Shown here: positions 18,982 to 53,995 of the stretch, one piece after another | Position numbering within the stretch: the stretch's first letter is position 1 | Layout of the letters: every line of letters begins with the position of its first letter | Assembly (NCBI GenBank): GCA_017439965.1 | Contig: JAFSID010000013.1 | Location: 1-56,292, forward strand | Length of the DNA: 56,292 nucleotides | Origin: Clostridia bacterium | Lineage (GTDB): Bacteria; Bacillota; Clostridia; Oscillospirales; SIG627 | Direction: 5' to 3' | Position numbers and translations under genes: made by a program | Notes under the pieces: generated by a model | Seen by the model: only the letters and a program-made list of their open reading frames with translations | The model's database searches: none | What the model was told of the DNA's origin: nothing

Positions 18982-20160
18982 TTAATTTTTATACACCGTT
19001 TTTCCGCCGACAACCGTCATTTTTACGTTGATATCGCTGTCGAAAAGCACGAGGTCGGCACGAAGCCCTCTTTCAAGGCTACCTGTTTCACCGTCGATTC
19101 CGATAAGCCTTGCAGGGTTTGAGGTCATCATCTGTATAGCCTCGACGATAGGCACGCCTACCGTCTTGTACATAGTGCGGACGAGTCTGTCTGCGGTACA
19201 AACGCTGCCTGCAAACGCCGAGCGGTCGGGAAGCTTTGCAACGCCGCCCTCGATTATACAGCGCAAACCTGTTTCACGGTTACCGAGCACGGTTTCACCG
19301 TCGGGCATTCCCGCACCTCTCATAGAATCGGTAACGAGTGCGATGCGGTCAACTCCCTTGAGCTTGTAAATCATCAAAAGAAGCTCACGGGGAAGATGGT
19401 GACCGTCGGCAATAACCTCGACGTTCATACCGTCAATAAGATAACCGCTCTCGATAACTCCGAGTCTGCGATAGCCGTCAACACGGGTAATGGTGGACAT
19501 TCCGCTGTAAAAGTGGGTCATAAGCTCAACGCCGTTATCATAAGCCTTCTCAACGTCAGCGTAAACAGCGTTGGAATGACCGATTGAAGCAATAATCCCC
19601 TGCTTCTTGAGATATGCGGCAAACTCATCCGCACCCTCAAGCTCGGGGGCAAGTGTCCAACGGATTATCGCTCCGTTTGACATTTCCACAATATACCCGT
19701 AATCCTCGGGAGTGGGCTTACGGATATATCTCGGGTCCTGAGCGCCTGCCTGCTCGGGAGAAAGATAGGGACCCTCCATATGAATACCGACCAGCCTTGC
19801 GCCGAGATGCTCGGAGTCACGCGCCTTGGCAAAGCATTCAAAAGCCCTTACAACGTCCTCAACGGGCCCCGTCGTAATGGTGGGCACGAGAGTGGTAGTA
19901 CCGTGCTTTGCATGAAGCTCTGCGGGAATTATATAGGACTCAACACCGCCGTCATTAAAATCGGCGTCTCCGCCGCCGTGACAGTGTATGTCAACGAAGC
20001 CCGCCGACAAAAATCTGCCCTCGGCATCAATGAGATTACCCTCAAGAGTCGGAGCACCCTCTCCGACACCGATTATAATTCCGTTTTCATAGGCAACGTA
20101 GCCCTGCTCAATAACTCTGTCGGATACGATAACTCGCGCGTTGTAAATAATGGTTTTCAT
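18982..20160 (-). CDS. nagA: N-acetylglucosamine-6-phosphate deacetylase
   Basis: GFVDIHCHG, HMEGPY, TLAPE, GHSNA, THFYSGM, IADGHH, VTDSM and AGS motifs. Confidence 0.9.
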   Translation of the reverse strand: MKTIIYNARVIVSDRVIEQGYVAYENGIIIGVGEGAPTLEGNLIDAEGRFLSAGFVDIHCHGGGDADFNDGGVESYIIPAELHAKHGTTTLVPTITTGPVEDVVRAFECFAKARDSEHLGARLVGIHMEGPYLSPEQAGAQDPRYIRKPTPEDYGYIVEMSNGAIIRWTLAPELEGADEFAAYLKKQGIIASIGHSNAVYADVEKAYDNGVELMTHFYSGMSTITRVDGYRRLGVIESGYLIDGMNVEVIADGHHLPRELLLMIYKLKGVDRIALVTDSMRGAGMPDGETVLGNRETGLRCIIEGGVAKLPDRSAFAGSVCTADRLVRTMYKTVGVPIVEAIQMMTSNPARLIGIDGETGSLERGLRADLVLFDSDINVKMTVVGGKTVYKN

Positions 20161-34797: not shown

Positions 34798-35965
34798 TGT
34801 ATATCACCTGATGTTCAAGAGTTTTGAGCGCGTTTTCGATGAGAGCTTTGCGGTCGAGACCTTCCTCGGCGCGAATTACCTTTTCAAGCACGGGTCGTGT
34901 TCTCGGATGAGGAGGCGTGAATACCGTACAGCAATCCTCGTACGGCTCGATTGAAGTCGCAAAGGTATCAATGCGACGGGCTATCTGTACTATTTCCTCC
35001 TTGTCCATTCCAATCAGCGGACGGAACACGGGAATCGTCGGCACGCAGTCGGTTACCGCAAGAGCCTGCATTGTCTGACTTGCAACCTGACCGATGCTCT
35101 CGCCCGTTATCAGCGCGTTAGCGTTAACGCGACGGGCAACCTCGTCGGCAATCTCCATCATAAAGCGACGGAGAATAAGAGTGAAATAATCGTACTCGCA
35201 GTTGTCTCGGATAGCCTCCTGAATTTCCGTAAGAGACACCTTATTAAAATGCATCTTGTCGGTATAACGGCAAAGCTTACCTGCAAGCGTCTTTACCTTT
35301 TCAAGCGCGCGCTCGGAGGTATAAGGGAAGCTTTCAAAGTGGAGCGCATCCACCTCAACGCCTCTCTTTGCCATCATCCAGCCTGCAACGGGAGAGTCGA
35401 TACCTCCCGACAGAAGAAGCAGGCCTCTGCCTCCCGTTCCATAGGGAAGACCTCCCGCGCCCATCGTTTTTCCTGCGTGAATGAAGGCGTATTTCTCACG
35501 CACCTCTATCATAACCGTTATCTCGGGGTTGATGACGTCAACCGCAATATCGGGGCATTTTTCGGAAAGCTCTCCGCCTACCTCCATCATAATCTGAGGA
35601 GTCGTATAAGGGAAGGTCTTGTCACTTCTTCTTGCGTCCGCCTTGAAGGAGCGATAGCCCTCAAGGTGAGGCGGAATGTACTCAAGCGCAACTCTCATAA
35701 TCTCCTCCATGCTCTTTTCGGCACGGTAGGCAATACAAAGGGAAACTATTCCGAAAATTCTGGAAAGCGCGTCGTGAGCTATCTCAACGTCCTCGTCACG
35801 CTCGGGAGTGACGTAGACGGTGGACTGCATATATTCAAGCTCGTATTCACCGATAAGTCCCTTGAGACGACGGCGAATCGAATCGGCAAGCTGTTTTTCA
35901 AAGGCACGTCTGTTTGCGCCCTTCAGAATTATCTCACCGTATTTTAAAAGTATGGTTCTTTTCAT
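34784..35965 (-). CDS. thiI: tRNA 4-thiouridine synthase ThiI
   Basis: KYGEIILKG, THUMP domain, LLSGGIDSPVA, TGESIGQVASQT and EDCC motifs. Confidence 0.96.
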   Translation of the reverse strand: MKRTILLKYGEIILKGANRRAFEKQLADSIRRRLKGLIGEYELEYMQSTVYVTPERDEDVEIAHDALSRIFGIVSLCIAYRAEKSMEEIMRVALEYIPPHLEGYRSFKADARRSDKTFPYTTPQIMMEVGGELSEKCPDIAVDVINPEITVMIEVREKYAFIHAGKTMGAGGLPYGTGGRGLLLLSGGIDSPVAGWMMAKRGVEVDALHFESFPYTSERALEKVKTLAGKLCRYTDKMHFNKVSLTEIQEAIRDNCEYDYFTLILRRFMMEIADEVARRVNANALITGESIGQVASQTMQALAVTDCVPTIPVFRPLIGMDKEEIVQIARRIDTFATSIEPYEDCCTVFTPPHPRTRPVLEKVIRAEEGLDRKALIENALKTLEHQVIYNEAF

Positions 35966-43655: not shown

Positions 43656-44300
43656 TTATGAAAAGCTATACTTTAAAAGTAACTCCGCAAAAGGATTGTA
43701 AGCAGGCTTTTCTTCTATCTTACCTATATAATAAGGGCTTAACTGCAATACCGGCTCTCTTTCCATCTTTGCAAAAAGATACGCTGTATTTCGTGCATCT
43801 ACAAGGGCATCATGTTCGCCGTCATCCCAGTAAATGTCAGCTATTGAAAGTGCCTCAGAAAGCTTATATCGTTTCTCGGTATCCATTCTATCACTGAACG
43901 TCTTTTGACAGTCAACCCAGGTTTCCAAGTATTTATCAATTCCAATTACAACAAACCCTTTACCGTCAATCTCGTTGATTATTTGCATTTTATCACTATC
44001 GCTCCAGGATACTATGATTGCATCCTCAGGAACCCAAGATATAAATCTTGTTAACACCTCGCAAAAATCCGGGGCGCCTTTTACGTCCTTAGGTGAGATG
44101 TGAGTAAGATTCTCAATGTATTTGCTTATAATTCCGTACTGAGGAGAAACATAAGATATAAAAGTGTCAACGATTTCAAGAGATTCATTCAAAAGCACCG
44201 CTCCGATTTGTATCGTTTCGCATCTCCCTCTCATATTGCCTCGGTATGCGCCTTTGGGAATATCACACATTTCCAAATCGACGACTACGTATTTACTCAT
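43656..44300 (-). CDS. DEDDh 3'-5' exonuclease (KapD/ERI-1-like)
   Basis: VVDLEM, ETIQIGAV, SWSDSD and HDALVDA motifs. Confidence 0.88.
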   Translation of the reverse strand: MSKYVVVDLEMCDIPKGAYRGNMRGRCETIQIGAVLLNESLEIVDTFISYVSPQYGIISKYIENLTHISPKDVKGAPDFCEVLTRFISWVPEDAIIVSWSDSDKMQIINEIDGKGFVVIGIDKYLETWVDCQKTFSDRMDTEKRYKLSEALSIADIYWDDGEHDALVDARNTAYLFAKMEREPVLQLSPYYIGKIEEKPAYNPFAELLLKYSFS

Positions 44301-46021: not shown

Positions 46022-47008
46022 TTAGTCTCCTTTAATTTTATCCTTGTAGCATTCAAGTGCGCCTATTATATAAATCATCAAGCCATCGGAGCTTAACGCT
46101 CTGTCAAGGGCTTTGACGGTCGCATGTCTTGAAATCCGCTTTATAAAAAGCTCAAACGCCTCTCTGTCCGAGTCACACGGCTTACAGTCCGAAGAAGAAA
46201 TTGCCTTATAAAGCCTTTCTGCCTCTGCAATACATTCCTCCGAATAAAAGGGCGCTCCCTGATTCTTGAGTGATTCAAGTCTTACAAGCACGCTTGACAG
46301 GGTCTTATCAAAGCCAACGTCATCCGAGCTCCTGCACCAAAGGGATACCGCCGAGGAAAGATATTCTCCAAAGCCGTTTTTATAATCTTTATTTAACCCA
46401 ACAACGACGGCGTTACTCGAAAACATCTCCTCAAGCATTAACAACGAGTCAAAAGCAATAGAAGAGCAAGCCTTTCGTATCAGCGGAATACATTCCTGCA
46501 CGGATTCATCCGTGTAAGGAATTTCATCCTCAAAGCAATAATAAAGTCTGTCAACAGCCCCGTCAAAAAGCGCTTCCTTCTCCTTGCTGAAGCTTTCCTC
46601 TCCTATCAGCTCAAAATTGGTCTGCATCAAATCGACACATTCCTCATAATTGAATAAGCCGTAATTCACTTCCCTTGGAGTAATTCCCGCCAGCTTCAGA
46701 TTATCCGTCACCCTCAAAAGCATTTCAATTCTGTCACGCTTTTTCTTTAGCTCGACAATATGCCGTTCAAGAGTGGCATCCGCATCGAAATCAGGGTCGT
46801 TCATAAGCCGACGTATTTCCTCGTTTGAATATCCAAGCTCCTTATAAAAACGAATCGTCCATATCTGCTCAACCTCCTCGTCGGAAAACTGTATAGAGGT
46901 ATTATCCCCTCTCCATTGCTTAGGTCTGCACAGAATCTTATCCACCCAGTATTGCACCGTCGTTCTCCCGACACCGAGCTCAGTATAAACCTCTCTCAAG
47001 CTTTTCAT
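46022..47008 (-). CDS. MerR-family transcriptional regulator with long C-terminal domain
   Basis: LGVGRTTVQYW, IRFYKELGYSNEEIRRL and a coiled coil. Confidence 0.8.
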   Translation of the reverse strand: MKSLREVYTELGVGRTTVQYWVDKILCRPKQWRGDNTSIQFSDEEVEQIWTIRFYKELGYSNEEIRRLMNDPDFDADATLERHIVELKKKRDRIEMLLRVTDNLKLAGITPREVNYGLFNYEECVDLMQTNFELIGEESFSKEKEALFDGAVDRLYYCFEDEIPYTDESVQECIPLIRKACSSIAFDSLLMLEEMFSSNAVVVGLNKDYKNGFGEYLSSAVSLWCRSSDDVGFDKTLSSVLVRLESLKNQGAPFYSEECIAEAERLYKAISSSDCKPCDSDREAFELFIKRISRHATVKALDRALSSDGLMIYIIGALECYKDKIKGD

Positions 47009-47856: not shown

Positions 47857-48372
47857 TCATTTTTGTTCTGCTTTACGGCGGTTAAATTCCTCGACGTCTA
47901 TCTTTCCGTCGGCAAGCATCTTTTCCACCCAAAGCTGAAGGGTCTCAACGGTAATTGAAATGCGCTCAAGCTCCTCTTGGATATAGATAAAATCGTTAAG
48001 CTCCTCGCTGTCGATAACGCCGTCGGCGGTTATTTCGATAAGGCGCTCCTTTTTCTTTGCCATCGAATTGAGAGAGGCAAGCATTTCAAGAACGATTTGC
48101 GAAAGGTCCTTGACCTTGACCTCGGGTATGTACTCCTGACCTATCGGACATTCGTTGGCGCAGTAATAATTGCAAAGGTGAGGCGCCTTATAGCCACGTG
48201 ACATATCAAGCACGTCCGACGGATGAGGAGTAATTTTTTCGCTTTCTATCCTCTCGATTCTCTCGGGTGTCAGGGTTTCGAGCAGCTCACTTGCCGCCTC
48301 ACGCGAAAGTCCGAGCTCCTCGCGCTTTTTCTGATATACGTTTTTATTTTCCTTAGATGATATTTTACCCAT
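47857..48372 (-). CDS. XRE-family HTH regulator with YYCxxEC motif (copy B)
   Basis: Start set to ATG 48372 by alignment with copy A; REELGLSRE, NYYCANECPIG and EITADGVIDSEE. Confidence 0.82.
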   Translation of the reverse strand: MGKISSKENKNVYQKKREELGLSREAASELLETLTPERIERIESEKITPHPSDVLDMSRGYKAPHLCNYYCANECPIGQEYIPEVKVKDLSQIVLEMLASLNSMAKKKERLIEITADGVIDSEELNDFIYIQEELERISITVETLQLWVEKMLADGKIDVEEFNRRKAEQK

Positions 48373-48428
48373 TTCAAGCTCCAAAGTTTTTTCTTTTATT
48401 TTATCATATATTGCCAAATAATCAACCG

Positions 48429-48778: not shown

Positions 48779-48813
48779 AAAAAATGCACTCCGAATTTCT
48801 TCGGAGTGCATAA
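48779..48813 (-). terminator. Terminator of TasA-like copy 2
   Basis: TGCACTCCGAA-GAAA-TTCGGAGTGCA plus T6; identical 35-mer at 51020-51054. Confidence 0.85.
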
Positions 48814-48820
48814 AACGTGT

Positions 48821-50896
48821 TTAAAGTGTAACGGTTACACCGTCTACGGTAACGGTAGTATTGGGATCACGTGCGATAAGTTCAGCGAAATTAAAGTGGG
48901 CAAGAATATTTGCAGCAGTCAAAGGCGCACCGTCAACCGTACAGTTGTTAAACGCTATATTAACAGTCTTGTTAGCCCAGTTTGCAGATTTGAAAGCAAT
49001 ATCAGCATTGAACTCACAGCCGGTAAAGGTATTTGTAGCTCCTGCTATATAAAATCCAATTGCATCGCTGTTCCAGGTGTTCTCAAATACAACGGTATCA
49101 AAGGTTGATGCCTTAACCGTAGAAATGGAAACGCCCGTGCTGTCCAAGGTCGTATTGCTTACGTTTACGTAGCCTCTGGTCGTGCTGTTACTCGGACCGA
49201 ACGAAACAGCGTTACCCTTAACCTTGATAGTAGAATCAGTGAGGTTCATAGTTCCGTTCATATTTCTAAATACAAGACCCGAGCTGGCGCCCCAAAGAGT
49301 AGTGGTATCCGTAATGGTAAGGTTAGAAACGTTTGTCACGGATGCGGTAGTATCAGAGCCGCTTGCAATCAACAGCAAGCCCTGACTTACATTAGCACCC
49401 TCAACGGTAGTGTCCTTGATGGTGGTGTCAGAACCGGAAACGGTAAGACCGTAGGAAGCGCCTGCGCTCTGATACTTAACGCCCTCGATGGTGGTATTGT
49501 TACCATTGATGGTCGTAGTGCCTACGGACTGGATGGTCATATCCTTTACCGTCAAAGCATCGGCAGTAACGGTAGCGCCGTTGGAAGCAACGGTAGTACT
49601 GTCAACGCCGTTACCAACAAGCGCGATGTTAGAAGAGCCGTTCAATGCATCGGCAATGTTGTTTACGGATACCGTATTTCCTGCGGTAGAGTTAATAGCT
49701 ACGCTATCACCTGCATTTACGTTGCCAAGAGTCTCGTTGAGCTCCTTTTCAGCCTCAGAAAGCTCGGTGTAAACAACGGTAATATTGCTCTTCTTTGCCT
49801 GAGAGAAGGGCGTAAAGTAATTAGTGCTGAAGGTTACAACGCCGGTAGCGATATCATAGGTTGCCCAAGTATTAGTGGGCATCATACCGTCCTTATATAC
49901 CTTTACGTCATTTCTGCCTGCACCAATAGGAAGCTCAACCTTTATGTTACCGTAATTATACAATTTGTGAGTGCCGTCTACAAAAGGATTGATGTAGTCA
50001 GCAACGCCGTCTACGTAAATCTCATAGCCGTTTGCCACCTGCATTTCAGTAAGAGCACCGCCGTAACCGTTTGCGGCGTTCTTTACGGTAAGCTTAAGAT
50101 TTGCAAGGCTCGCAGATGAAAGCTGTGCACCTGCGGGAACTGTAACCTTAACAGTGCCGTAAGGCATATCGGCAGTCATAACAACCTCTTCGCCAAGTTT
50201 TCCGTTGTTGTTAACGATAGCAGCGCTCTCGTTTACTGCTAAAAATTCAGAGTTTACGTCATACTGATCGTCAAAGCTATCCTTTTCGCTGGTAAGCTGA
50301 GTTGCGAGGAGCTGAACGGTAAAGTCAGAGCCGATTGCCTTGTCCTGATACTCGTTGCCTGCGTTCTCACGCATCTTGAGAGCAAGAGTAACCGTATCTG
50401 TTTCCTTTTCCAAAAGCTCACCGCTTGCGTTACTCGGCATACCTGCGAGAATCTGAGTGAGTGTACCTACGGGCTCAATGCTGTTAAGCGCGGTGCGGTC
50501 TGCAACCTGAACGGCGGGATCCACGAAATAAACGTCAATCACGTCCGCAAGATCGGAAACGTCGCCGTTTGCAAAGATGTTAAGCTGATACTTGAATGCG
50601 AGCGTACCTACGTTGCTGATCTTAATGTGACGAACCTCAACGTAACCAGGCTCCCACTTATCGTTGTTGAAGATTTTGCCCGTTGATGCATCATTCCATA
50701 CAGTACCCTGTGCCTCGGGATCTGCTTTGCCCTCAGCCCAGTGCATTTCTACGTCAAGAGTACCCGACTTGATGATGTTTCCCGTGCTTGTAACACTGTC
50801 GGTAAACCACGCAAAAGTAGTGCCGATAAGCATTGACGCACAGAGAAGAAGTGAAAGCGCGCTCATAATGAGTGAATGTCTTGTGCTTCTTTTCAT
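48821..50896 (-). CDS. SipW-type signal peptide protein, TasA/CalY-like N-domain plus T/N/S-rich beta-helix passenger (copy 2, 691 aa)
   Basis: Start ATG 50896 after AAAGGAG; TTFAWFTD, WEPG, NVGTLAFKY, AGNEYQ and LLATQ. Confidence 0.82.
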   Translation of the reverse strand: MKRSTRHSLIMSALSLLLCASMLIGTTFAWFTDSVTSTGNIIKSGTLDVEMHWAEGKADPEAQGTVWNDASTGKIFNNDKWEPGYVEVRHIKISNVGTLAFKYQLNIFANGDVSDLADVIDVYFVDPAVQVADRTALNSIEPVGTLTQILAGMPSNASGELLEKETDTVTLALKMRENAGNEYQDKAIGSDFTVQLLATQLTSEKDSFDDQYDVNSEFLAVNESAAIVNNNGKLGEEVVMTADMPYGTVKVTVPAGAQLSSASLANLKLTVKNAANGYGGALTEMQVANGYEIYVDGVADYINPFVDGTHKLYNYGNIKVELPIGAGRNDVKVYKDGMMPTNTWATYDIATGVVTFSTNYFTPFSQAKKSNITVVYTELSEAEKELNETLGNVNAGDSVAINSTAGNTVSVNNIADALNGSSNIALVGNGVDSTTVASNGATVTADALTVKDMTIQSVGTTTINGNNTTIEGVKYQSAGASYGLTVSGSDTTIKDTTVEGANVSQGLLLIASGSDTTASVTNVSNLTITDTTTLWGASSGLVFRNMNGTMNLTDSTIKVKGNAVSFGPSNSTTRGYVNVSNTTLDSTGVSISTVKASTFDTVVFENTWNSDAIGFYIAGATNTFTGCEFNADIAFKSANWANKTVNIAFNNCTVDGAPLTAANILAHFNFAELIARDPNTTVTVDGVTVTL

Positions 50897-50983
50897 TGTT
50901 TTTCTCCTTTTAGAATAAATATTATTGAAAAACGGATACCCACATACCGTAATTTCCAAAACGGGAAGCTGTCGCCATTTACC

Positions 50984-51008
50984 ATTATATATATATATAT
51001 ATTGTCAA
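50984..51008 (-). promoter_or_regulatory. Promoter with (AT)n spacer, candidate phase-variable switch
   Basis: TTGACA (51008-51003), then 13 nt of pure AT repeat, then TATAAT (50989-50984). Confidence 0.7.
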
Positions 51009-51019
51009 GGCTTTTTTTA

Positions 51020-51054
51020 AAAAAATGCACTCCGAATTTCTTCGGAGTGCATAA
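51020..51054 (-). terminator. Terminator of TasA-like copy 3
   Basis: Identical to 48779-48813. Confidence 0.85.
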
Positions 51055-51057
51055 GAC

Positions 51058-53907
51058 TTAATAGCCTATTACGTTTTCTGCGGTGAGACCCGTGTTATTT
51101 GCAATAACCTCTGCTTCAAAGTCAGCAGGCATATCACTTATAACGTAGCCGATAGCCTCATCGTTAATGTTAGTGAAGGTACAGCCCTTTATAGTAGTTG
51201 TGCTTCCGTTCTTGTTCTTGATTCCGCAAAGTGCGTTGTTGTAGTTATCAAAGGTACAGTTCTCAACGGTGAGATTACCGTTAAGATTCTTGTAGATACC
51301 CCAGTTCTTATCGGTAGCTGTGCCCTTAAAGCTACAGTTTCTGACTACGATATCACCGTCGCCGTCGTGGTCGTTGTTATTAACCGGACCTGCAATTGCA
51401 TAACCCTTTAGATTTGTTTCAAAGGAGATATTTTCAATAACCGCATCTCCAATACAGCTAAAGATATCATCGTAGGTTGAAATCTGCTGAATAAGAACCG
51501 TCTTACCTGCCTCACCCTTAATGGTTACGCCGTCGGGAATGGTAAAGGTTCCGCTCGTAACGTAGGTCTGCTCGGGAAGAATAAGCACGTCACCCTTCTG
51601 GAGAGTGGGAAGGTACTCGTAAAGACCGCCGTACTTGGTGGGATTGTAGGTGGTTTTATGATAGTTGTCAAAGCCGTTAACTACAACGGGTGTCTCCCAG
51701 GTTTCATCGCCCCAGGTTGCAACGGTGTAGATACCGCCGCCCTGAAGTCCGCTCGCACTGGTAAGAGTATTACCGCTTGCAACGTTGGTGCCCTCAAACT
51801 CAAGGTCTATGGTAGTCGAGCTGCCGATTGTAAGTGCCATACCGTAGAATGCGGAAGCGCCTGCATAGTCTGCAACGGTGGTTGCGGTAATCTCCGTATC
51901 GGTTACAGAGCAGTCAATAAACTTGATGGTAGCGTTGCTCTCGCTGTTTCTACCGACGAGACCGCCTACGTTACATCCGCCCGTGATAGAGGAGTTGGTT
52001 ACGTTAACCTTTTCAACAGTAAGGTCACCGTAAGCCTCGCCCCATACTGCGCCGTTGTGATGTGAGCCACCGTTCAAGGTGAGATTGTCAAGGGTAAGGT
52101 TCTTTACAACCGAAGCAACGGCTCCGTTGGTACCTCTCGTTGCACCCGTGAAGAGACCTGTTCCGTTAATGGTAAGGTTGGAAATTGTATGTCCGTTACC
52201 GTTGAAGGTAATACCGCTGACGTTAGAGGAGTCGGGAGTGATATGCTTAGTTGTCCAGATATAGCCCGTAGCGTCGATGTCTGCCATTACGTTATAGGTC
52301 TTGCCCCAGAATGAACCGCTGCTGTAATTTGCGATAATCCAGTTGTTGAGAGCTATAAGAGCCTCTGCGTTATAAACGTAGTAGTTGCCGTTTGCATCCT
52401 TATAAAGACCGTTTGAAACCTCGGTGTCAACAACGGTTATAAGCGTATCCTTGCCGTCGGCGTAATTGAATTTTTCACCGTAAATGTTCTGACCTGCCGC
52501 AACTGTGGGATTGATAATGAACGCGGTAATCATATTTACGATTGAATCACCGCCGTCACGACCTACCGCACCTGCGATACCGCCAGCCAACGTGTGACTT
52601 GCACTGCCAACAAGCTCTTTAACCTCACCGTTATTGGTACAGTCGGAAACGGTTACGGTAAGGTTGGTATTATTGTCGTCACCTGCGATAAGACCGATGA
52701 TACCGCCTGCGATAATGTCTGCGGTAACGTCGCCGTTATTGGTACAGTTATCAACGACGGTCAAACGGTTAGCCTGACCGATAAAGCCACCTACCTGATG
52801 AGTGCCCGTAACGTTTGCGTAGTTCACGCTGTCAACGATAAGAGTATCGTAGGAGCGGTCAGCACCGATAAAGCCGCCCGTGTAATGTCCGCCACCCTTA
52901 ACGTTACCCGTTACGGTTACGTTGGAAATAACGGTCTGGTCTGCATCCGCAACCTTATCTACCTGACCTGCAATCGCACCCGTGCGAGCATCGGTTGACT
53001 GGATGTCAACGTTTTCAAGAGTAAGGTTCTTGATGGTTGCACCGCTGATTTTGGTGAAGAGACCGTTTGCGCCCTTGAGGTTCTGGATAGCGTAGCCGTT
53101 ACCGTCAAGAGTTCCGCTGTAATTTGCAATGGGAGTCCAGGTCTCGCCTGCAAGGTCAATATTCTTGGTAAGCTTAACGTTCTGATTGTTGTTAAGAGCC
53201 TTGATAAGCTCGCCTAAGGTTGAAATCTCCTCGGGGAATGCAGCATTCTCGTCGTACGTCTCGTCAAAGCTGTCATCCTCGTAAGTAAGCTGAGTTGCGA
53301 GGAGCTGAATATCAAATTCGCCAAGCTTCTTGTCCTGATATTCGTTGCCTGCACTCTCCTGCATCTTAAGAGCAAGACCGAGATAAATCTTATCTCCCGC
53401 CTCGCCCATAGGCATAAGCTCGCCCTTGGTAGTCGTCTCAATAGTGTTTATAAAGCTTGTGAGGTTGCCAACGTACTGATAACCGTCTGCCTCAAGGTCA
53501 CGGGTGTCGGGCATAGCAAGTGCGTTGGTATCCTTCTTAACCCAAACGTCAATTACGTCGGAAAGTATGGAAAGCTTCTCGCTTGATACGAACTTAGCGT
53601 ACCACTTGAGTGCAAGCGTGCCCTCGTTTTCAATCTTGAGGAGCTTTACCTCGGTATAGCCGGGCTCCCACTTTTCGTAATTGAAAATAGGTGCCTTGCT
53701 TTCCTTGATGCTTGCGTATTTGTCAGCTGTGGTATTGTCCTTGTCATACATTTCAAGGTCGAGTACCAGAGTACCTGACTGAATCTTGTTTCCCGTGCTG
53801 GTAACGCTGTCGGTAAACCACGCAAACGTAGTGCCGATGAGCATCGATGCACAGAGAAGAAGGGAAAGTGCGCTCATAATGAGTGAATGTCTTGTGCTTC
53901 TTTTCAT
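51058..53907 (-). CDS. SipW-type signal peptide protein, TasA/CalY-like N-domain plus GLUG-like repeats and beta-helix (copy 3, 949 aa)
   Basis: TTFAWFTD, WEPG and AGNEYQ; two (L/F)xGNGxxIxNL modules; repeated GGFIG/GGIAG/GGLVG; NCTF/NCSF repeats. Confidence 0.82.
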   Translation of the reverse strand: MKRSTRHSLIMSALSLLLCASMLIGTTFAWFTDSVTSTGNKIQSGTLVLDLEMYDKDNTTADKYASIKESKAPIFNYEKWEPGYTEVKLLKIENEGTLALKWYAKFVSSEKLSILSDVIDVWVKKDTNALAMPDTRDLEADGYQYVGNLTSFINTIETTTKGELMPMGEAGDKIYLGLALKMQESAGNEYQDKKLGEFDIQLLATQLTYEDDSFDETYDENAAFPEEISTLGELIKALNNNQNVKLTKNIDLAGETWTPIANYSGTLDGNGYAIQNLKGANGLFTKISGATIKNLTLENVDIQSTDARTGAIAGQVDKVADADQTVISNVTVTGNVKGGGHYTGGFIGADRSYDTLIVDSVNYANVTGTHQVGGFIGQANRLTVVDNCTNNGDVTADIIAGGIIGLIAGDDNNTNLTVTVSDCTNNGEVKELVGSASHTLAGGIAGAVGRDGGDSIVNMITAFIINPTVAAGQNIYGEKFNYADGKDTLITVVDTEVSNGLYKDANGNYYVYNAEALIALNNWIIANYSSGSFWGKTYNVMADIDATGYIWTTKHITPDSSNVSGITFNGNGHTISNLTINGTGLFTGATRGTNGAVASVVKNLTLDNLTLNGGSHHNGAVWGEAYGDLTVEKVNVTNSSITGGCNVGGLVGRNSESNATIKFIDCSVTDTEITATTVADYAGASAFYGMALTIGSSTTIDLEFEGTNVASGNTLTSASGLQGGGIYTVATWGDETWETPVVVNGFDNYHKTTYNPTKYGGLYEYLPTLQKGDVLILPEQTYVTSGTFTIPDGVTIKGEAGKTVLIQQISTYDDIFSCIGDAVIENISFETNLKGYAIAGPVNNNDHDGDGDIVVRNCSFKGTATDKNWGIYKNLNGNLTVENCTFDNYNNALCGIKNKNGSTTTIKGCTFTNINDEAIGYVISDMPADFEAEVIANNTGLTAENVIGY

Positions 53908-53966: not shown

Positions 53967-53995
53967 ATTATATATCCAAGCCCTCGTTTTGTCAA
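53967..53995 (-). promoter_or_regulatory. Perfect SigA promoter of TasA-like copy 3
   Basis: TTGACA-N17-TATAAT. Confidence 0.8.

Follow-up and report, generated by a model that had tools for sequence, protein, structure and literature searches.

A TA-repeat spacer in the promoter of a SipW/TasA-type protein gene of an uncultured gut Clostridia bacterium: a probable slipped-strand contingency promoter

The window analysed here is a stretch of 56,292 nucleotides (contig JAFSID010000013.1, positions 1 to 56,292 of the forward strand) from an uncultured gut Clostridia bacterium. Its genome, G000, comprises 2.44 Mb in 106 contigs, with 45.8% G+C. In the window, the gene P0001, which codes for a protein with a SipW-type signal peptide and a TasA/camelysin domain, lies downstream of its paralog P0002. 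The promoter of P0001 has perfect −35 and −10 hexamers only 13 bp apart, and all DNA between them is a TA repeat. This raises the question whether the promoter is switched by gain and loss of repeat units, is broken, or works regardless of its spacing. We consider it probable that P0001 has a slipped-strand contingency promoter, that is, one made hypermutable by a simple sequence repeat. The genes around the locus lie on the minus strand and the promoter was read on that strand. Its parts are the following, the module copies being described further below.

51025..51052, minus strand: intrinsic terminator of the upstream paralog gene P0002, with 12 pairs (6 of them G-C) and a T-run
51009..51024, minus strand: T7-A7-GCC stretch immediately 5′ of the −35 box, containing the terminator U-tail and an A-tract
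51003..51008, minus strand: −35 hexamer TTGACA, by direct reading, invariant across four aligned module copies
50990..51002, minus strand: 13-nt spacer made solely of AT repeats, (AT)6A, by direct reading
50986-51002, minus strand: alternating TA run of 17 nt that includes the spacer, by direct reading
50984..50989, minus strand: −10 hexamer TATAAT, with TATAATGGTA invariant across the four aligned module copies
50897..50983, minus strand: leader (5′ untranslated region), with the ribosome-binding site AAAGGAG at 50910-50904 and the ATG at 50896
53967..53995, minus strand: ordinary TTGACA-N17-TATAAT promoter of P0002, without a repeat, from the promoter scan

Read directly on the minus strand, the promoter is GCATTTTTTTAAAAAAAGCC TTGACA ATATATATATATA TATAAT GGTAAATGG. 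Extended upstream to the terminator, the string is ATGCACTCCGAAGAAATTCGGAGTGCAT TTTTTTAAAAAAAGCC TTGACA ATATATATATATA TATAAT GGTAAATGG. A preliminary description of this DNA had claimed perfect hexamers around a 13-bp TA-repeat spacer, a spacer that two more units would bring to 17 bp, and this geometry was confirmed. It had also called the site the only promoter-like one ahead of P0001, and on this strand the consensus promoter scan (16-18-nt spacers) gave no other from the terminator as far as the ATG at 50896. The sister gene P0002 was correctly described as having an ordinary N17 promoter, found at 53995-53967. The intervening terminator proved strong, its 12-bp stem (51052-51025) being followed by U7 and folding at −20.2 kcal/mol (z = −6.75), a stability reached by 0/200 shuffles.

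Further candidates for control elements around the boxes were considered. The possible −10 boxes 16-18 bp from TTGACA (AATGGT, ATGGTA and TGGTAA) were poor and were rejected, as was AGCCTT, 17 bp 5′ of TATAAT, as a −35 box. By sequence reading, the TG extended −10 motif is absent from the P0001 promoter. The A-tract 5′ of the −35 box could serve as an UP-like element, and an A-run ahead of TTGACA is kept among the aligned module copies. The leader does not fold better than its shuffles (z 0.39), and an Rfam search with it gave chance-level matches only, far under the gathering scores. A structured leader or riboswitch was therefore rejected.

What a 13-bp spacer should do can be judged from the other promoters of the genome. 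In the whole of G000, perfect TTGACA-Nx-TATAAT pairs numbered 89 at x = 17, 11 at x = 16 and 10 at x = 18. Four pairs, the P0001 site included, had x = 13, and the other spacings from 8 to 26 had 0-4 pairs each, except x = 22 with 10. The peak at x = 22 is due to a doubling of the −10 box (TATAATATAAT), the first of the two boxes standing at N17. This doubled box is frequent in G000, and a −10-like box, several times a perfect TATAAT, was seen at 17 bp in the x = 22 pairs. Judged by these counts, the primary sigma factor of G000 uses the classical 17-bp geometry very strictly. The genome has 15 genes that bear the SipW-type signal-peptide motif. In nine of them, a TTGACA-like box and a TATAAT-like box flank an ordinary, non-repeat spacer of 16-18 bp (judged by eye); two carry a TA tract in the promoter, and the remaining four have no such promoter in the 260 nt upstream.

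Because the perfect promoters of G000 concentrate so sharply at 17 ± 1 bp, the 13-bp allele of P0001 is very probably weak or silent. The claim that this gene copy is OFF in the assembly agrees with that distribution, yet "low" is the safer word. In E. coli consensus-promoter libraries, spacers below 15 bp lowered expression further but left it above background, according to the accessible part of PMC8695583.

The tract exceeds chance. A first-order Markov model predicts 0.0007 (TA)8 or (AT)8 tracts in the 2.44 Mb of G000, and two were observed. Both dinucleotide tracts of at least 8 units sit between a TTGACA and a TATAAT, and none of the remaining ones is longer than 6 units. In the genus (16 genomes), all four (AT)n sites of at least 7 units fall within TTGACA/TATAAT spacers, of 13, 15, 15 and 18 bp, ahead of signal-peptide-like starts. 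The family (51 genomes) has six (AT)n sites of at least 8 units, four of which lie in such spacers, the fourth spacer being 16 bp long; the other two, one intergenic and one coding, occur in one genome. Across the order (401 genomes), TTGACA(AT)8 was found 6 times in 5 genomes, and the backwards pattern, used as a control, 0 times.

The promoter belongs to a module of which G000 has three copies, on contigs C85 (the P0001 locus), C53 and C39, with spacers of 13, 15 and 5 bp and good alignment on either side of the core. On C53, a TTGACA-(AT)9-AATATAAT promoter homologous to that of P0001 occupies 19599-19630 (locus L216, ~200-231), with the (AT)9 at 19605-19622. It precedes a TasA/camelysin paralog of 455 amino acids (PF12389). 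Its first TATAAT is 15 bp and its second 20 bp from the −35 box, and with one TA unit added it would have the N17 spacing and doubled −10 box that are usual in the genome. In the C39 copy, the spacer has collapsed to 5 bp (TTGACA-ATATA-TATAATGG, ~35160-35180, or ~260-280 of locus L215). This copy lies inside the leader of a gene for a 1003-amino-acid protein with SLH and Listeria-Bacteroides repeat domains. It looks like a relic, because the gene has a separate, perfect TTGACA-N17-TGnTATAAT promoter ~90 nt upstream (L215, 147-175).

An alignment of the three G000 copies with one from another species of the genus shows which parts of the module vary. The A-run, TTGACAATAT and ATATAATGGTA are invariant, and inside the promoter core the copies differ in length mainly at the TA tract. 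Over its final ~75 nt, the P0001 leader does not differ from that of the C53 paralog, so the tract has changed faster than its surroundings.

The same type of promoter was found in other gut Bacillota by two scans of public data. The genome scan covered one genome per species with the pattern TTGACAATAT-N(0-30)-ATATAATGGTA, which makes spacers of 5 to 35 bp visible, and yielded 104 loci. Among these, 22 had a pure (AT)n spacer: eight of 5 bp, two of 9 bp, two of 11 bp, four of 13 bp, two of 15 bp, and one each of 17, 19, 21 and 23 bp. The 82 non-repeat matches peaked at 17 bp (18 loci), with 5 at 16 bp and 7 at 18 bp. The metagenome scan, in which only spacers of at least 11 bp are visible, yielded 65 loci, 54 of them with pure (AT)n spacers. 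Their lengths were 11 bp (15), 13 bp (10), 15 bp (17), 17 bp (4), 19 bp (5) and 21 bp (2); one further copy, of 5 bp, stood on a two-module locus. Together, the scans gave 76 pure TTGACA-(AT)n-TATAAT promoters.

Grouping by downstream sequence produced 9 groups with at least 2 members and 47 singletons. Spacer length differed in 7 of the 9 near-identical-flank groups (11, 11, 11, 11, 15, 19 and 19 bp; 11, 13, 15, 17 and 21 bp; 11, 11, 13 and 13 bp; 13, 13 and 15 bp; 13 and 23 bp; 11 and 19 bp; 15 and 17 bp) and was uniform in two (11 and 11 bp; 15 and 15 bp). Loci L140 (15 bp) and L176 (17 bp) differ in 1/485 flank bases. L138 and L188 (11 bp) are identical to L159 (19 bp) at 400/400 downstream bases, L151 (17 bp) matches L146 (21 bp) at 205/206 bases, and L156 (11 bp) matches L177 (15 bp) at 299/300 upstream bases. 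These flank-matched differences are strain-level length polymorphism, the signature of a hypermutable tract. In the pair with 13 and 23 bp (L116 and L066), from two other species, the downstream gene is of the camelysin type with a SipW signal.

Genes behind the TA-tract promoters were compared with those behind non-repeat promoters with the same boxes. The rule used to mark secreted or membrane proteins was crude, asking for a signal-peptide-like start in which an uncharged hydrophobic stretch comes after a basic N-terminus, and related sequences do not count as fully independent cases. The rule was positive for 35/63 open reading frames (ORFs) behind pure TA promoters vs 15/52 behind non-repeat promoters. 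After similar ORFs had been collapsed, 25/44 groups were positive vs 11/46 (odds ratio 4.2, Fisher p 0.002). Pfam was run on ten examples, drawn from the 63 pure-set ORFs together with the two genes of the G000 paralog modules. Among the ten were MucBP/Muc_B2 with an LPXTG anchor (alleles of 11, 13, 15, 17 and 21 bp), BspA-type leucine-rich repeats (LRR) with fn3, DUF5648 with LRR, fn3 repeats, Laminin_G_3 with fn3 (2010 amino acids), SLH, and camelysin (two proteins); 2/10 had no Pfam family. By their sequences, the downstream genes appear to be typical contingency targets.

Two of these genes recur. The MucBP/Muc_B2 LPXTG protein (1016-1061 amino acids), which has a YSIRK-like signal, was found in five assemblies on the metagenome contigs L169, L168, L142, L151 and L146, with spacers of 11, 13, 15, 17 and 21 bp. 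The flanks of these loci are 96-100% identical, the upstream flank of L168 excepted. The commonest gene behind pure TA promoters in the public scans, with spacers from 11 to 21 bp, codes for a conserved protein of ~70-90 amino acids that starts MR(I/V)ILDTDKKTIT(V/L)PWNY and matched no Pfam or PHROG family. Its loci include the following.

L130:3160-3390, L158:7001-7249, L156, L177, L193, L196, L164, L170 and L218, among others: small MR(I/V)ILDTDKK protein

From these observations, the following mechanism can be proposed for P0001. RNA polymerase with the primary sigma factor would need ~17 bp between TTGACA and TATAAT. Because the whole spacer is a TA repeat, its length would be set by the number of TA units and could take odd values only. 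In the 13-bp allele, the boxes would be ~4 bp out of register while the upstream terminator blocks read-through, and P0001 would for both reasons have little or no transcription. At replication, slipped-strand mispairing would add or remove TA units and change the spacer in 2-bp steps: one more unit would give 15 bp (weak), two 17 bp (full) and three 19 bp (weak again). A clonal population would thus keep yielding cells that express or silence one member of a variable surface-protein family of ~15 genes. Since the strong terminator insulates it from the upstream paralog, P0001 would be dialled independently of the other family members. The N17 preference of the genome, together with the E. coli spacer data (partial text of PMC8695583), leads us to infer that expression follows tract length at P0001. 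Switching that is frequent, reversible and adaptive would be a further step of the same inference.

Length variation was also sought at the P0001 locus itself. Parts of the stretch occur, as assembled contigs, in twenty runs belonging to 11 studies, with gut metagenome as the recorded source of almost every one, and the contigs of four of the 21 runs listed (X1, X2, X4 and X6) were compared at the locus. The X1 contig spanning the tract has 121 letters and aligned to 119 reference bases (50931-51049) with 2 gap letters and 0 substitutions, at a depth of 2.8 vs 5.9-7.3 in neighbouring contigs. It is compatible with a (TA)9 allele occurring alongside the (TA)8 of the assembly, and X1 may be the sample behind the genome assembly. 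The listed contigs of X2, X4 and X6 do not cover 50976-51009; alignment rows are dropped at the repeat, and these gaps carry no evidence. Contigs also break at the leader shared by the paralogs and at the duplicated terminator (51025). A metagenome scan for G000's own module (boxes plus conserved leader) gave 0 matches. Among relatives, at one genome per species, no orthologous P0001 promoter was found, the matches being the coding N-terminus or other module copies. The slipped-strand switching put forward in the preliminary description thus stands in part. Slippage is supported indirectly, by three G000 module copies that differ mainly in TA number and by near-identical strains elsewhere that vary, whereas at the locus the support among contigs is the single X1 contig with its two extra letters.

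Several points weigh against a contingency promoter. The class shows no sign of selection for 17 bp, and alleles of this length are scarce (5/76 pure promoters, and 1/22 in the unbiased genome scan). Collapsed 5-bp spacers make up 9/76, C39 included, and such a tract is too short for ready slippage; the C39 case shows that the module can persist as a dead relic. Class members are not independent, several being orthologs or paralogs of one another. The extra letters of X1 have no displayed position, and most alignment rows at the repeat are false. G000 has intact MutS and MutL, so dinucleotide slippage should be damped, and absent mismatch repair was rejected as a source of instability. Finally, activity above background below 15 bp in E. 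coli means that the effect may be graded rather than ON/OFF (PMC8695583, seen in part).

The rarity of 17-bp alleles and the collapsed forms, among them the C39 copy whose gene uses another promoter, speak for decay. By this account, slippage lengthened and shortened the AT-rich stretch of spacer and −10 box by accident and left a redundant paralog with a broken promoter; the silencing is permanent, and the tract is neutral. With ~15 paralogs, the loss of one would be cheap. Against decay, the ORFs behind the tracts are intact (691 amino acids here, 455 on C53 and up to 2010 elsewhere) and the hexamers stay perfect in the P0001 allele and the other module copies. Near-identical strains carry both longer and shorter alleles, 17 bp included, and the promoters stand preferentially ahead of surface proteins. 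For these four reasons, we favour a switch and regard decay as rather unlikely.

Expression could also be largely independent of tract length. A consensus −10 box with easily melted TA-rich DNA and an upstream A-tract, an activator that compensates for the spacing, or residual read-through might suffice, and the tract would then fine-tune at most. The activity of E. coli consensus promoters with spacers below 15 bp (accessible part of PMC8695583) speaks for this, as does the retention of genes in a class whose alleles mostly differ from 17 bp; a gene for a helix-turn-helix (HTH) regulator lies directly downstream (47857-48417). Against it, the perfect promoters of G000 number 110 at 16-18 bp vs 4 at 13 bp, the site has neither a TG extended −10 motif nor, in the 16-18-nt scan, an alternative promoter-like site near it, and the upstream terminator is strong. 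We judge this explanation unlikely.

An assembly or sequencing artefact, in which an invariant 17-bp spacer was collapsed, is highly improbable: dinucleotide repeats are liable to stutter in the polymerase chain reaction and the X1 contig is off by 2 letters, but reads and assembly k-mers far exceed the 17 nt of the tract, this same assembly retained a longer tract in the C53 copy, and the same promoter type occurs at many lengths in two public scans (104 and 65 loci).

A slipped-strand promoter at P0001 would have well-known counterparts. Repeat-tract switches are textbook knowledge in the mucosal pathogens Haemophilus, Neisseria and Mycoplasma, and discussion of phase variation in gut commensals centres mostly on invertible promoters and methylation. 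Homopolymer switches in the promoter spacer are known for Neisseria porA and opc and for Mycoplasma hyorhinis vlp. There, as at P0001, a repeat within the spacer sets the −35/−10 distance, but the unit is a single base and the steps are 1 bp, whereas P0001 would move in 2-bp steps through odd lengths only. In the Vmm system of Mycoplasma mycoides, the poly-TA tract is located between the −35 and −10 boxes; the mycoplasmas are part of the wider Firmicutes-derived lineage.

The closest precedent, also named in the preliminary description, is TA slippage between the −35 and −10 boxes of the Haemophilus influenzae hif genes. As far as the accessible text of PMC2651432 and PMC11709252 goes, hifA/hifB have (TA)9-11 between the promoter boxes, with maximal transcription at 10 units and reduced transcription at 9 or 11; both papers cite van Ham 1993 and Geluk 1998 for the tract. 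As at P0001, a TA repeat alters the −35/−10 distance, and in these sources unit changes shift hif expression between maximal and reduced or absent, with a surface fibre as the target. The hif system differs in belonging to a Gram-negative pathogen, with overlapping divergent promoters and a chaperone-usher pilus. P0001, with its predicted switch, has a single promoter and a SipW/TasA-type protein in a gut Clostridia commensal.

For Vmm-type lipoproteins, the text available from PMC2628566 and PMC3053259 (citing Persson 2002) describes TA insertions and deletions in a repetitive promoter region that turn expression ON and OFF, and several paralogous genes of strain 95010 with poly-TA tracts of 10 to 16 units. 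The likeness to G000 lies in several paralogs of one genome carrying TA promoter tracts of differing length, and in the surface-protein target. The differences, within the same sources, are that the hosts are wall-less pathogens, that the targets are lipoproteins, and that switching frequencies were measured. The Streptococcus pneumoniae spxA1-tenA locus, according to the part of PMC11709252 consulted, has a variable AT repeat near the promoter that shifts transcription level between strains. It is likewise a variable-length AT dinucleotide repeat near a promoter in a Bacillota species, but the repeat lies upstream of the promoter rather than in the −35/−10 spacer, and a toxin-antitoxin pair takes the place of the surface protein as target.

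By analogy, P0001 probably shares the mechanism of hif and Vmm, for which both its taxon and its gene family are new. A search of a library of open-access papers found no report of TA-tract promoters in Clostridia or of phase variation of SipW/TasA proteins. This agrees with the earlier statement that no such switch was known on SipW/TasA-type fibres. The C53 paralog and L066/L116 are further natural examples. P0001, the C53 paralog and the 76 look-alikes suggest repeat-tract control of surface proteins in uncultured gut Clostridia as well as in other members of the Bacillota. Opinion could fall evenly on either side as to whether TTGACA-(AT)n-TATAAT promoters form a widespread and hitherto undescribed class of contingency loci among gut Bacillota (Clostridia and Bacilli), each independently dialling one surface protein, be it a TasA-type fibre subunit, a MucBP/LPXTG mucus binder, or a BspA-LRR or SLH protein. 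If they do, repeat slippage would be, beyond DNA inversion, a general route to surface variation in gut commensal Firmicutes. One of its targets would be the multigene SipW/TasA-type family, for which such control is absent from the open-access literature searched. A single metagenome-assembled genome would then understate the surface repertoire of its population, and the TA count would be a cheap marker of expression state in metagenomes. The class-level pattern deserves a proper census.

The genes concerned and the terminator of P0001 are the following.

48821..50896, minus strand: P0001, 691 amino acids, with a SipW-type signal peptide, a TasA/camelysin (Peptidase_M73) N-domain and a divergent C-terminal part
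51058..53907, minus strand: P0002, the upstream paralog, 949 amino acids
48784..48811, minus strand: terminator of P0001, with the same 28-nt hairpin as 51025-51052, from the terminator scan

The SipW-type signal peptide of P0001 matched TIGR04088 with 23.6 bits (cut-off 19), and residues 9-193 matched the camelysin/TasA domain PF12389 with 27.8 bits (curated cut-off 22.5). The C-terminal 480 residues had no Pfam family, and a sequence search of the PDB with P0001 gave 0 matches among solved structures. The C-terminal part resembles right-handed beta-helix models (template-modelling score, TM, 0.42-0.53), which is a lead only. Of the earlier label "TasA-like adhesin", the first half is thus borne out by both matches, while "adhesin" is a guess. 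P0001 and P0002 are identical in their first 40 residues, share 53% identity over the 228 residues of the N-domain, and diverge beyond it. A SipW-type signal peptidase is represented in G000 by 3 matches above the TIGR02228 cut-off, two on C50 (one with an internal TAG) and one on C82.

Both paralog genes end in an identical 28-nt hairpin (ATGCACTCCGAAGAAATTCGGAGTGCAT), at 51025-51052 and 48784-48811. The shared hairpin suggests that entire gene cassettes, together with their ends, were duplicated or converted. The HTH gene directly 3′ of P0001 (47857-48417, minus strand) codes for a protein of the XRE type, and a gene for a MerR-family regulator follows farther downstream (46022-47008, minus strand). 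Another SipW-signal paralog, on C72, has a G7 run inside an 18-bp promoter spacer (TTGACA...GGGAGGGGGGG-TACAAT), ~60-90 nt before its ATG at 43980; G000 contains only 5 G7 runs and only 5 C7 runs.
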